64,000 nt of DNA from positions 1 through 64,000 of IMG/VR virus record IMGVR_UViG_3300028797_000007. One strand, given 5' to 3'. The stretch's first letter is position 1; every line of letters starts with the position of its first letter. Positions 26,941-58,970 of this stretch are shown in pieces. Source of the DNA: a virus. Its lineage: Duplodnaviria > Caudoviricetes. The translations under genes were made by a program, and so were the position numbers. The notes beneath the pieces were generated by a model, which saw only the letters and a list, made by a program, of their open reading frames with translations, had not been told where the DNA came from and did no database searches.

Positions 26941-27489
26941 CTACATACTGTCTACACCAGGATATGGATTAACATCTGGGTCAACAATTAGACCTTCATC
27001 TATAACAATTTCAATAGTATGGTCTCTTGTGATACCAGAGTATGTAATCTTAACTTCTGTCTCACTTATTTCTTCAAATGTAATCCAAGCAGGGTTACCT
27101 GTCTTATATTCTTTACCATCTACGATTAAATGGAAAGCAGTTACCTCACTACCGAATGTTATTAAAGATGAAACTGTAGCACCCTCTTCTATATTTTCAA
27201 TTCTTTCTGCATCTGGAGCATATCCCTCTATGTTTTCATAAGAAAGAACATATAGATTAGGTTCAGGTATAGGTTTCTTACCATAAATTAAGTCTAAATA
27301 ATATGATTTGTCGTCAACTATTCTTAAATCTTCGTATCCGACTTTACCTAATAGTTCTAGAGCTGTAGTAGCTGCTTCTTCTGGTGTTAATACAGCATAT
27401 TCTACTGTTTCGTCATTATCGTTAGTTACCATATGAAAAGCAAAAACGTTTTCTCTAGAAGTGTGTAACTTAGTCATAATTTTATACAT
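26941..27489 (-). CDS. Hypothetical acidic late protein (possible accessory virion protein)
   Basis: GGAGG RBS, own late motif; ends DPDVNPYPGVDSM. Confidence 0.7.
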   Translation of the reverse strand: MYKIMTKLHTSRENVFAFHMVTNDNDETVEYAVLTPEEAATTALELLGKVGYEDLRIVDDKSYYLDLIYGKKPIPEPNLYVLSYENIEGYAPDAERIENIEEGATVSSLITFGSEVTAFHLIVDGKEYKTGNPAWITFEEISETEVKITYSGITRDHTIEIVIDEGLIVDPDVNPYPGVDSM

Positions 27490-27513
27490 AGTTTCCCTCC
27501 TTTTACATTATTT

Positions 27514-27551
27514 CTCTAATATATAGTAGGTTTTTAAGTATAGAAATTAAA
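27514..27551 (-). promoter_or_regulatory. Putative late promoter
   Basis: TTTA-N19-TACTATATATTAGAG. Confidence 0.7.
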
Positions 27552-27568
27552 AAAAAGAAAGAGGAGAA

Positions 27569-28018
27569 TTATTTCCCCTCATTCATTATTTCACCAGTTT
27601 CTGGGTCTTTAACAGCTCATGTAATTACTTCTTCTTTTGTTACGCTTACGTTTGCTAATTCAACTATTCCTTTAATAGCTTTTTTAGCTTGAACAACAAC
27701 TGTAGCAACGACAATACCTAAAACAGCAACACTTGATAAAGTGTTTAATATTTCAGGTGAAAGTAATACAACTCCAAAGCTATTAGTAATCATATCATTT
27801 ATAAAAGGTAGCATTGTAAAAGCTACAGAAGTAAGTGCTGCACTTATATAAAATATAATAGCTTTTCCCAAGCCTCTAAATAATTTAGACCAAGAAAATT
27901 CTTCTCCTTTGCTTGTATTATGAATAATACCACAAATTGTATTAACTATTACTAGCATACCTAGAACTACTCCTAGTCATCCCATAGTTTTAAGTGTTGA
28001 CATAATAGCATCTAACAT
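27569..28018 (-). CDS. Holin (149 aa; TGA=Trp at 27977, 27617)
   Basis: Three hydrophobic segments, FSWSKLFRGLGKA motif, immediately downstream of the endolysin, GGAGG RBS. Confidence 0.8.
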
Positions 28019-28030
28019 ATTTTATCCCTC

Positions 28031-29455
28031 CTATATTTTTTGTAGAGCATCTGCTTTATAGAATCCAGTTGTACCAGTATTATTTCCTATTTGATAAGGA
28101 TAAGGTCTGTTTTCTTTATGTCCATGCTCTACATCTCAAATATCTAAAACAGTTCTTACCCAACCAATACCATAAGCAGTATTTGAATCACCATAACTTG
28201 AACCATTGCCCGTTCCTATTATTTTAACTTTGTCTCCAATTTGAGGTTTGTTAGGAGTAGGTTCTGGTTTAGGTGGTTCTGTATAAGCAGTAATTGAACT
28301 TTCGTTCATCCAACCCAAATCTCCTGTTGTATTATAAGGATGAGCAGCTCCGTCTAATCTTCTTGTGATGTAAGTTTCGGTAGCTCCAACTACTCCATTA
28401 GGAGTGGCATCATTAGCTGTTAAATATAAATCCCCACTTACAATTACATGGTCGCCGATTTCAAACTTATAAGTAGGTGTTGGCGTTGGTGTTGGTGGGA
28501 CTGGTGCTTCTGCAGGTTCCAAATAGCTTGCAGCCATATAACCTACAGCCCCATCACTAACTACTTGTACGTGATAATAATGGTAACCATACTTATCATA
28601 TCCATCGTTTAAATATTTAACTAAAGTCCCTGTTTCATAAGTTCTTATCTTACCACCATTATCATCTAATAACCATAATGAACCGTTAATTACTTTATAA
28701 TAATCACTAGGTGTTGGTGCAGGTTGCCCATCAATCCAAGCTTGGACATCCGCTGGTTGATAAATGAAGCATTTAAAGTAATATTGACTTCCCATACCCC
28801 ATCTTCCATTTGCATTTGTTCTCGTTGAATTCCAGAATATAGCAGTACATCCATATCCAGATTCTGAAGTATAAATACTTCCATCTTCATTAACTCTTTC
28901 AACTGTCCCAACATGGCCACATCCTTCAGGACCTCCGCCCCAACAGATAATTGCTCCAACTCTTGGAGTTGAACCCATTGCTAAACCATCTTCAGCAGCT
29001 CTTTTATCAAAGTTAGCAGCATTACAATTTAAGTTAGTATAAGTACAACCGGTAGTTCCTCTGGCTGCATTTATGATTTCATTTGTACGTCCACTCGCAT
29101 ATCCAACGCAATTGGCCAATACGTCTGCATGTGGGTCGCATGGGTTCCCTTTAATACAAGTATTCCATCCACCAGAACCAGTTCTAATATAATTTAAGTT
29201 ATCATATGGTCTACTTGTTCTCATTGTAAAACCTAGAGCCCCAACACCTTCAGGCATTTCTGCATTTTCATTTTCAATAATTGTGTCTGGGTCATTCATT
29301 TCTTCAATACTATCTGTATTAAACAAGTATTGAATATTTTCATCATCAATGTCGTCTCTTAAGAATGCTTTAGCTACCATAGTTTGCATTTCTTTTGGAG
29401 CTTGTTCAATTCTGGCAATTTTTTCTTGCCATGTAAGTTTTTTATTTTCTTCCAT
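28031..29455 (-). CDS. Endolysin: CHAP domain plus SH3-like cell-wall-binding domains (474 aa; TGA=Trp at 28136)
   Basis: ANCVGY and CGHVGTVE catalytic Cys/His; GYMAASYL SH3b-like domain; PT-rich linkers; two IGD.V repeat domains. Confidence 0.88.
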
Positions 29456-29480
29456 AATAAAATACCTCCTCTTATTTTAT

Positions 29481-56894: not shown

Positions 56895-56912
56895 ATGCTT
56901 CCCTCCTAATTA

Positions 56913-57443
56913 TTAGTCTCTGTTATTTGGAATAGGGTCATTATCGTCCCCATTATGAATTGTTGGTCCTGGTTGATAATCCTGATTATTAGGATATTTT
57001 TCTAGACCACCAAAATTTCCAACAATACTTACTCTTTTATAAGTATATTCATGTAATGCTTTACGCATATCAGCTAAGTATTGTTGATATAAAACTGTTA
57101 AATTTCTCAAATTTTCATTTGGTGAATAAGTTTTAATACCCGCATCATAATATTGTTGTTCAATTTTTCTACTACTGTTTATATAACGTTCTAACCATAC
57201 AGGTTTCATACAAATGGCTAAAACCTCTATCTCATCATCAGTTAAAGTCTCGTAAAATACATGTGCTCTTTCATCTCTCTTTCTTAAATTATGTTCTGAA
57301 ATACGAGCAAAAGAATTAATAGCACTTAATAAAACAGGATAAAGTGCTATGTGCAATTTATCCTCGTCTAATGATGCCAAATACTCGTCTTCTATTTTAG
57401 CTAGAAAACGCATATATACATCATAATATTCTGTTATTTTCAT
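56913..57443 (-). CDS. Head-tail connector protein
   Basis: VYMRFLAKIED, LTDDEIEVLA..M...W, YSPNENL; position after capsid. Confidence 0.7.
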   Translation of the reverse strand: MKITEYYDVYMRFLAKIEDEYLASLDEDKLHIALYPVLLSAINSFARISEHNLRKRDERAHVFYETLTDDEIEVLAICMKPVWLERYINSSRKIEQQYYDAGIKTYSPNENLRNLTVLYQQYLADMRKALHEYTYKRVSIVGNFGGLEKYPNNQDYQPGPTIHNGDDNDPIPNNRD

Positions 57444-57859
57444 TATTTTGTTTTCTTAGATGATGTTTTCTTTGTAGTAGTTGTTTTTTTAGTTGCAGTC
57501 TTTGCGGCAGGAGCTACAGCCTTAGGTTCTTCAATAGTGATAATTTCTTCTTCTTCAGGTTCTTCTTCAATTTCTTCTGTTATTACAACAGCTGAGTAAT
57601 CTTCTCCTAAAAATTTAGCGATTTCTTCTTCAGTTAAACCCATTTCATATAGTTTATTTGCATCTATATTACTAATTCTAATCATTCCTTCATTAAAAAT
57701 AATTTTGCTAGCAGGATAATCTAAAATATCTTGTAAACTTGTCTCACTAATTCTAATTCTTCCCCCAAGACCAAAACGATAAGTTCTGTTTTGTGTGTCT
57801 TTTAAACCTACAGGTTGTCCTGAAATGTTTTCTAAAACAACTGTTCTCTCATTATTCAT
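57443..57859 (-). CDS. Hypothetical head-region protein with Glu-rich then Lys/Thr-rich tail
   Basis: GGAGG RBS; follows the capsid gene. Confidence 0.7.
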   Translation of the reverse strand: MNNERTVVLENISGQPVGLKDTQNRTYRFGLGGRIRISETSLQDILDYPASKIIFNEGMIRISNIDANKLYEMGLTEEEIAKFLGEDYSAVVITEEIEEEPEEEEIITIEEPKAVAPAAKTATKKTTTTKKTSSKKTK

Positions 57860-57883
57860 TTGTCATTCCTCCTAAAAAATTGT

Positions 57884-57930
57884 AAAAAAATTAAAGAGAA
57901 GGGACTTTCGGAAAAGTCCGTTCTCGTTTT
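57884..57930 (-). terminator. Intrinsic terminator after the major capsid gene
   Basis: GAGAACGGACTTT-TCCG-AAAGTCCCTTCTC followed by T-runs on the minus strand. Confidence 0.75.
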
Positions 57931-57944
57931 ATTACTAAGAAATA

Positions 57945-58970
57945 TTACATAGATGGATTGTCATCTAATTCAGTATTTCTGTAGATACCCCAGTAGTTAT
58001 TAGCTACTACTGCTACGTCAAACATATGTTGAGCAGATACTTCGATAGAACCATCTTGTAATCTTTGTTCATCGATTAAAGTTCCACCTTCAATACCAAT
58101 CTTAACTGGTTTTTCTTTACCAGCTGGCATAATATATGCATATTGGTCATCAATAGCTTTGATAGTATTACCTTCATCTTCAAAAGATTGAGTTAATAAT
58201 ACTACGTTAGTTCCTTTATAACGTCCAACATATCCTTGTTCTCTAACATCATCATAATCTCTTAATGATGTAACAGGATTAGCATCTCCAACCCATCCTG
58301 GTTGATTGAATAAGTATGAAGCGAATGCTTTAGTACAATAAATTGTAACACTGTCTCCATAAGCTTCTACAGTAGTGATAATTTTGTCGAATTCTTTTGC
58401 GTCAAATCCAGCAACTACAGCTTTGTTAGCAGCAGGTCTGTCTTCAGCGTTGATAGCAGCTTTTAAAGCTCCTTGAACTGTTTTATAGATACTGTCTGAT
58501 AATCCTTCGATTATGATATCCATTAATTCAGCCATATCAACACGTCCAGCTAAGAAATCTCCTAATTCTAAGATAGCTGCACCAGCGTATACTCTAGGAC
58601 TCATAGTGATGTCTCTAGTATCTACGTTGAATGTACGGTAAGTTCCGTATTCTCCAGCAACAGTAACGAATCTTTTACCACGTGTAACACCTGTTCTTTG
58701 TTTGAAAACTATTTTTTCTCCAACATTTACATGTTGTACTTCAGCGAATGAACCAAATTGAGCGATTACTTTTTTAGGAACAACAACGTTAGCGATTTCT
58801 TCGATTAATTGGAATAAAATATTTTTGTTAGCTCTATAATAACTATAGTTATTGAAAGCTTTTAATTCTTCTCTTAAAGTTTCGTTAACGTCAGCTAGAC
58901 TGTATTCTGCTGGAATGTTTTCTTTAGTAGCAGCAGCTACACCTAATTCAACTAATTTTTCTAATTCCAT
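57945..58970 (-). CDS. Major capsid protein
   Basis: 341 aa; SPbeta-like MCP pattern (LFQLIEE, FAEV, GYVGRYKG, KPVKI); highly biased codon usage; ends DDNPSM. Confidence 0.88.
   Translation of the reverse strand: MELEKLVELGVAAATKENIPAEYSLADVNETLREELKAFNNYSYYRANKNILFQLIEEIANVVVPKKVIAQFGSFAEVQHVNVGEKIVFKQRTGVTRGKRFVTVAGEYGTYRTFNVDTRDITMSPRVYAGAAILELGDFLAGRVDMAELMDIIIEGLSDSIYKTVQGALKAAINAEDRPAANKAVVAGFDAKEFDKIITTVEAYGDSVTIYCTKAFASYLFNQPGWVGDANPVTSLRDYDDVREQGYVGRYKGTNVVLLTQSFEDEGNTIKAIDDQYAYIMPAGKEKPVKIGIEGGTLIDEQRLQDGSIEVSAQHMFDVAVVANNYWGIYRNTELDDNPSM

Follow-up and report, generated by a model that had tools for sequence, protein, structure and literature searches.

To our knowledge, glycosylation of phage particles has been shown experimentally for mycobacteriophages only. 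In these phages, Freeman et al. are said to have found in 2023 that the capsid and tail-tube subunits carry O-linked glycans at their C-termini, and the same authors reportedly saw little evidence of virion glycosylation among other phages. According to three reports that cite this work, the virions of the mycobacteriophages Che8, Corndog and Myrna are glycosylated in dependence on phage glycosyltransferases (GTs), capsid glycosylation in Che8 requires the GT gp110, and the particle is protected from antibodies by its glycans (PMC12363180, PMC11256854, PMC13445384). Here, we analyzed a stretch of 64,000 bases (the window), which covers bases 1-64000 of the genome of an uncultured gut or rumen phage (IMG/VR record of 111,499 bp, rated complete, with direct terminal repeats). 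In the window, the major capsid protein (MCP), the major tail (tube) protein and a third late protein, p182, end in Ser-Met (SM), and a late gene codes for a GT of the GT4 family. Taken as a whole, the data are probably best explained by a C-terminal tag on these proteins that is read by the GT4 and glycosylated at the last-but-one Ser.

As in the mycobacteriophage system, capsid and tube share a C-terminal end motif and a glycosyltransferase is encoded by the phage. The motif itself is different: in Che8 (L331), the capsid protein gp6 ends ..NKTGS (5051-5872) and the major tail protein gp11 ends ..YSDGS (7613-8422), with a terminal Gly-Ser on both, whereas the window phage and its relatives have the Ser (or Thr) in the penultimate position, before I, A, M or V. 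The enzymes are different as well, since a comparison of the window GT4 with mycobacteriophage proteins, including Che8 gp110 and Corndog gp38, revealed no similarity (tblastn, 50,697 records, E <= 0.01). The hosts are gut or rumen bacteria here and actinobacteria in the case of the mycobacteriophages. Furthermore, the pair of tag and enzyme is found here across several unrelated capsid families and is known from sequences alone, in contrast to the experimental evidence for the mycobacteriophages. The system of the window would work like the mycobacteriophage one, yet it does not appear to be a member of it.

Four open reading frames (ORFs) of the window phage end in Ser-Met:

57945-58970, minus strand: major capsid protein, 341 amino acids (aa), ending ELDDNPSM (TCT ATG TAA)
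53231-54205, minus strand: major tail (tube) protein, 324 aa, ending DPVDPASM (AGT ATG TAA)
26941-27489, minus strand: p182, the third tagged late protein, 182 aa, ending PGVDSM (AGT ATG TAG)
16833-17015, plus strand: early ORF of 60 aa, ending EKEQVSM (TCA ATG TAA)

All four ends had been pointed out in a first-pass annotation of this DNA and are present as described there; its observation that the Ser codons differ was likewise borne out (TCT, AGT, AGT and TCA), and the tails have no DNA repeat in common. TGA is a sense codon throughout the genome (137 in-frame TGAs were counted in the called ORFs), and protein ends depend on the code. Since all four ORFs stop at TAA or TAG, the SM ends are real under TGA=Trp, and the possibility that they are an artefact of stop-codon recoding was rejected, TGA alone being read through. 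Based on an internal SM dipeptide frequency of 0.0015, 0.24 SM ends were expected among the 158 ORFs compared to the four seen (P(>=4) ~1e-4); for the late strand, where three of 32 ORFs end in SM, the probability was P ~2e-5. The MCP belongs to phrog_4088, and its homologues in Bacillus phages are annotated as major capsid protein; after ..GIYRNTEL at the end of its body, it continues with the six-residue tail DDNPSM (codons 57948-57965). The tube protein belongs to phrog_2729 (virion structural protein) and its gene lies upstream of chaperone-like ORFs and of the gene for a 2264-aa tape measure protein. The model of p182 consists of an N-terminal alpha/beta domain, an immunoglobulin (Ig)-like beta sandwich (residues 79-163) and a disordered tail (residues 167-182, codons 26944-26991). 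Searches for a family of p182 in Pfam, PHROGs and NCBIfam gave nothing usable, and the Ig-like matches obtained by Foldseek were weak.

In a large protein collection, 379 homologues of the capsid protein were found, of which the best 120 (85-94% identity) were read. After the conserved ..GIYRNTEL, exactly six extra residues were present in 100 of these 120 homologues and zero to one in the other 20. Counting the last residue as position 0 and the last but one as -1, the 20 distinct six-residue tails all had Ser at -1, with I (9), A (8) or M (3) at position 0, a hydrophobic residue (Y, V, A, L, P or F) at -2, and polar or acidic residues at -5 to -3. The tails differed even on MCPs with identical cores. 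The MCP of a relative with 72% identity, G007, has Thr at -1 (..TTI) and, thus, the hydroxyl is the feature that is kept. These results suggest that the tag is [S/T]-[I/A/M/V]-COOH and that it is under protein-level selection, the tail being free to vary except for a hydroxyl residue before a hydrophobic end. The earlier proposal of SM as an acceptor tag is to be modified in this sense: the shared end is real, but SM is just the form that it takes in this genome. Similarly, the early ORF, which had been listed as a caveat, does end in SM, but its syntenic 76-aa homologue in G007, located between the dUTPase and thymidine kinase genes, ends ..EEYLSI and matches the last residue of the other G007 tags. 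The early ORF may therefore code for a fourth tagged protein, and a fourth substrate, rather than end in SM by coincidence.

In the window's clade (IMG/VR loci L003-L017), the tails of MCP and tube were jointly present or jointly absent in every pair. The tagged capsid/tube pairs were YSA/ISA, YSI/ISA, YSI/PSI, LSI/ASI, VSA/ASA, YSI/ASV and TTI/SSI, and the tail-less pairs were NTELV with ..EEAGE or ..VKAGE and NTELN with ..TEVK. In a distant clade with 40-44% identical capsids, both proteins were tagged (MSI/FSV, ESI/SSI and DSI/SSI), except in the member G026, which has neither tag. The p182 orthologues end YSV (G001), PSI (G002), LSV (G006), TSI (G007) and ISA (G005) after a conserved ..TIEIVID body, while the 205-207-aa versions in G003 and G004 stop directly at the body and have no tail. 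The last residue agreed in 19 of 28 within-genome tagged pairs (shuffle P = 0.00025, not corrected for descent), and one last residue per genome was seen in the window phage (M on all four proteins), in G007 (I on all four) and in G005 (A on three). Such sharing of the last residue within a genome fits one common reader of the tag.

The set of tagged proteins varied from phage to phage. Other late proteins with the same kind of end were a fibre-like protein (..YILIEDLPPSI) and a 187-aa protein (..NMSV or ..YTSI), located at G021 92212-93195, G016 48716-49282 and G021 106055-106618; in G059, the tag was also present on a protein of portal size (389 aa) and on a head-tail protein of 126 aa (26887-28056 and 24449-24829). 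Two further types of C-termini were recorded. Many fibre-like proteins of related and unrelated phages end ..PY[LI]xVYMW[KR]RTA, with or without a GT4 in the genome (G001 35665-37128 and 38641-39732, G002 45411-45956, G006 43813-45429, G021 103063-105003, L214 2383-5109). This is a separate conserved C-terminal motif that causes false T-A matches. The loci L021-L027 and L032, with 34-38% identical capsids, have a longer conserved tail, ..NPYGI or ..NPYGM, with no GT4 and no matching tube end.

The gene that accompanies the tag is the following:

29500-30630, minus strand: late GT4 (GT-B) glycosyltransferase, 376 aa under TGA=Trp

Twelve related genomes, nine tagged and three untagged, were fetched whole and each of the 158 ORFs of the window phage was compared with them. 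The late GT4 was the sole ORF of the 158 that was present in 9/9 tagged and 0/3 untagged genomes. Using profile (hidden Markov model) searches, the GT4 was found in the tagged genomes G016, G017, G018, G019 and G021, and it was not found in the untagged genomes G003, G026, G008, G009 and eight of group B; it was not found beside the lysis genes of the tail-less contig 125346 either. G020 is tagged and lacks the GT4, but this record comprises only 54% of the genome and breaks off ahead of the expected GT4 position. On a capsid tree from which the tail columns were excluded, tail and GT4 each change three times, and they do so on the same branches. All three independent contrasts on this tree were concordant, which alone corresponds to p = 0.25 in a sign test. 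As a result that would speak against its proposal, the first-pass annotation had named SM ends that are equally common in relatives without GT genes. The comparison came out in favour of the proposal: in the window's clade and in several unrelated phage families, the tails of capsid and tube track the GT4 homologue.

Among the sugar genes to which that annotation had pointed is an early cluster coding for a PseB-like protein, a GT10 and a GT2. This cluster is present in only three of seven close tagged genomes (among the tagged relatives in G000, G005 and G007 only) and was rejected as partner of the tag, which is tracked by the late GT4. A ubiquitin-like cassette of the phage was rejected as well, as its E1-like gene was found in four of nine tagged relatives and not in clade C.

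The association was also approached from the side of the enzyme. A scan of IMG/VR with the GT4 profile yielded 60 loci, many of which belong to phages of 25-50 kb that use the standard code and have no relation to the window phage. Among such small GT4 phages, S-A, S-V or S-I ends were almost confined to two ORFs per phage, which were assigned by PHROGs to major head proteins (phrog_1328, phrog_10, phrog_267) and major tail proteins (phrog_158, phrog_88). The putative tag and the GT4 co-occur in this way in at least three other capsid families beyond that of the window. In the phrog_1328 family, the GT4 gene is part of the head module, where it comes immediately after the capsid gene. Eighty relatives of this capsid were fetched irrespective of the GT4: the MCP ends S-A in 41/41 GT4-bearing loci, and among the 23 records without GT4, which were searched whole, 16 had no such end and seven had a tag-like one. 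Most of the latter are T-A ends, a one-residue variant of the common ..KAVTG. This family added four more independent contrasts, of which ~3 were concordant and none opposite. In locus L246, MCP and major tail protein are tagged with no GT4 nearby; the predicted GT4 was then found elsewhere in the genome, in three frames. G059 has a GT4, a capsid ending ..GAISA and a tail protein ending ..APASA.

Among the 50,697 phage records searched by tblastn (E <= 0.01), the GT4 matched four Butyrivibrio records alone (Arawn, Idris, Closwp03). The cultured Butyrivibrio phage Arawn carries the GT4 homologue gp42, and its annotated major head and major tail proteins end ..KIASV and ..KVTSA, respectively; the publication describing Arawn and the other Butyrivibrio phages does not mention glycosylation. 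Just past the tail genes of Arawn (L236, 15859-17004) there is a reverse transcriptase gene, which could belong to a diversity-generating retroelement. The Enterococcus phage EF1 and the phage Phass-1, cultured capsid relatives that were considered as models, were set aside, their capsids ending ..TYTRLV and ..VPGAWN without a tag. A scan of genome contigs with the GT4 profile gave mis-binned phage contigs in metagenome-assembled genomes only and no host assignment.

With TGA read as Trp, the GT4 product matched PF00534 (Glycos_transf_1) with 50.9 bits compared to a cut-off of 26.4, whereas the fragment obtained with translation table 11 gave a sub-threshold match to PF13439 alone. The AlphaFold2 model (pLDDT 82.4) has a two-Rossmann GT-B fold, and Foldseek matched it with E-values of 1e-10 to 1e-8 to BshA, HepE, MshA, PimA, WaaG and GtfA. 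Seven orthologues with identities of 30-57% all keep the Gly-Gly loop, the phosphate-binding motif SRxTxEKG and EX7E, the invariant residues being G78, G79, R224, K229, E300 and E308. We take the GG loop, the R/K pair and EX7E to serve in donor binding and catalysis, as is established for GT4 enzymes. An extra domain of ~60 aa is N-terminal in the window's clade (window 30445-30630), C-terminal in the distant clade C (G016 40503-41615, G021 83412-84527) and absent from the versions of the small phages and of Arawn; the N-terminal one had no family match in Pfam, PHROGs or NCBIfam. Based on these features, the late GT4 belongs to the retaining-type GT-B glycosyltransferases, and from its phyletic profile we predict it to be the enzyme that reads the tag.

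BshA, MshA and PimA (PDB 3mbo, 3c48, 2gej), the best fold matches, share the Pfam family, the GG loop, the R/K pair and EX7E with the window GT4, but act on malate, inositol phosphate and phosphatidylinositol rather than on proteins; the window enzyme differs by its extra 60-aa N-terminal domain, and identity is 14-18%. GtfA of the streptococcal serine-rich repeat adhesins (PDB 4pqg) is of the same type (GT-B/GT4) and glycosylates Ser of a protein in the cytoplasm. It ranked 28 among the structural matches to the GT4 model, with ~20% identity over 250 columns. In contrast to the C-terminal dipeptide of the window system, in which no GtfB-like gene was seen, GtfA acts on long internal Ser-rich repeats and needs the partner GtfB.

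In the mechanism that we propose, the C-terminal [Ser/Thr]-[Ile/Ala/Met/Val]-COOH tail would be a portable acceptor or recognition tag on outer virion proteins, namely on MCP, tube and the Ig-like p182 as a putative virion protein. From general knowledge of HK97-fold capsids and tube proteins, we assume that the C-termini of capsid and tube lie at the particle surface. The late, cytoplasmic GT4 would read the tag, probably by contacts to the free C-terminal carboxyl group and to the hydrophobic side chain of the last residue, and would move a sugar from a host nucleotide-sugar onto the hydroxyl of the last-but-one Ser/Thr. The outcome would be one sugar-bearing tail on each capsid and tube subunit; the PseB-like/GT10/GT2 cluster of the window genome and of two relatives may serve to lengthen or diversify this glycan. 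Glycosylation as the type of modification, Ser -1 as its acceptor, the identity of the sugar and its purpose (shielding or adhesion) are points that we infer from the sequences.

Several observations weigh against glycosylation of the tag by the GT4. The total number of independent evolutionary contrasts is ~7, and each family alone gives p = 0.25 in the sign test. Tag-like ends occur without the enzyme: the complete genome G027 has T-V and S-V ends, yet no GT4, PF00534 or PF00535 was found in it, and in group B the tube ends ..AATI despite no GT4 having been found. Conversely, in G052, which has a GT4, the tube is tagged and the MCP is not, while its sister G051 has the GT4 and both tags; in the L208 and L205 groups of the small family, GT4 and tagged MCP are accompanied by an untagged tail protein; and G054 has a GT4 but no obvious tagged capsid. 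The tags also persist where the GT4 gene looks damaged. In G018 (42770-43921), there is a TAA at the invariant Trp250 column, probably as a result of a TGA-to-TAA change, and in G028 (22371-23816; L314-L317) the GT4 lies in three frames beside a GT2 gene. Furthermore, the placement of the GT4 differs by lineage (late arm, or beside the genes for dUTPase, MCP or the single-stranded DNA-binding protein SSB), and GT4 enzymes act mainly on non-protein acceptors. These exceptions are compatible with recent loss or gain or with assembly errors, and the rule is not absolute.

Among the other explanations, we consider it unlikely that the tail is merely a docking peptide for the GT4, with the sugar going to other surface residues of capsid and tube or to the Asp/Ser/Thr-rich linker upstream, and with Ser -1 kept for binding rather than as acceptor. 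Such docking would account for the same co-occurrence data, the agreement of last residues within genomes suggests that the end itself is recognised, and the extra 60-aa domain of the large-phage GT4s could hold the substrate. However, only Ser/Thr was ever seen at -1, as predicted for an acceptor hydroxyl, the upstream tail positions vary freely and often have no Ser/Thr, and the small-phage GT4s lack the extra domain although the same tag is kept.

An even more doubtful explanation is that the tails are independent of the GT4 and serve in protection of the C-terminus, assembly contacts, phosphorylation or recognition by a host protease or PDZ-like domain, while the GT4 modifies, for example, host wall polymers in a TarM-like manner and co-occurs with the tails due to the same hosts. 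The best structural matches (BshA, MshA, PimA, TarM and WaaG) usually have small molecules, lipids and polysaccharides as acceptors, clade C and Arawn have their GT4 among early or replication genes, and G027 and group B keep their tail-like ends without it. On the other hand, the phrog_1328-family GT4 sits directly behind the capsid gene in the head module, non-homologous capsid and tube families share the tag only in the presence of the GT4, and no other gene has the same phyletic pattern. The motif of class I PDZ domains and tail-specific proteases has S/T at -2 and was rejected, as Ser is at -1 in 20/20 MCP tails. Finally, chance or compositional bias (Ser/Ala-rich ends being common), with the GT4 match reflecting shared ancestry only, is very hard to believe: some GT4-less relatives end T-A (the ..KAVTA group), the ..MWKRTA fibre ends occur regardless of the GT4 and independent contrasts are few, but four SM ends are seen against 0.24 expected, Ser -1 is invariant over 20 tails, at least four unrelated capsid families show the pattern, the informative contrasts all agree and the blind prediction for L246 came true.

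Returning to glycosylation of the tag by the GT4, we lean slightly towards a portable system, consisting of the end code and its dedicated GT4, that has spread horizontally among gut and rumen phages, over at least four unrelated capsid families and three of tail tubes. Such a system would range from siphoviruses of 30 kb with the standard code to TGA-recoded phages of 110-130 kb, with the last residue co-adapted to each enzyme. Particle glycosylation would then be common and modular in gut phages instead of a peculiarity of actinobacteriophages, with a different tag and a non-homologous enzyme travelling jointly across many gut and rumen phage lineages. As a rule for sequences, an S/T plus I/A/M/V end in a GT4-carrying genome would predict a modified virion protein. 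If correct, this would bear on the persistence of gut phages, by shielding from antibodies, proteases or bacterial capsid sensors or, alternatively, by adhesion to mucus or fibre, and it would provide a very short peptide tag for site-specific protein glycosylation. The idea is directly testable with a cultured pair, Butyrivibrio phage Arawn or Idris and B. fibrisolvens DSM 3071.

The accessory PseB/GT10/GT2 cluster comprises three genes:

17712-18650, plus strand: PseB-like UDP-N-acetylhexosamine (UDP-HexNAc) 4,6-dehydratase (Polysacc_synt_2, 183 bits)
18640-19440, plus strand: GT10-like protein with a GT10 C-terminal domain
19440-20657, plus strand: 405-aa protein with a GT2 domain, ending ..KEKESV

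The product of 17712-18650 scored 229 bits against TIGR03589 (PseB equivalog), below the cut-off of 407.75, and is predicted to be PseB/FnlA-like, short of an equivalog-level PseB. Four GT domains and a nucleotide-sugar dehydratase had been claimed for this phage. The dehydratase as well as GT10, GT2 and GT4 were found, but the N-terminal ~200 residues of the 405-aa protein, the claimed fourth GT domain, gave no family match. Under table 11, no separate ATG/GTG/TTG start is available for the GT2 part because two TGA codons join it to the upstream ORF.

The genome of the window phage has a GC content of ~31-32%. Its plus strand carries early and replication genes up to ~21.8 kb, and beyond that late genes follow on the minus strand. 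Under table 11, in-frame TGAs interrupt PolIII-alpha, RecJ, the PseB-like gene, the GTs, the tape measure, fibres and tail genes. The following are whole only with TGA=Trp:

7139-10981: PolIII-alpha, 1280 aa
3262-5007: RecJ, 581 aa
43523-50317: tape measure, 2264 aa
21865-26826: fibre

In all, the phage carries 26 tRNAs, including a tRNA-Trp(UCA) at positions 87418-87513 of the genome, outside the window.

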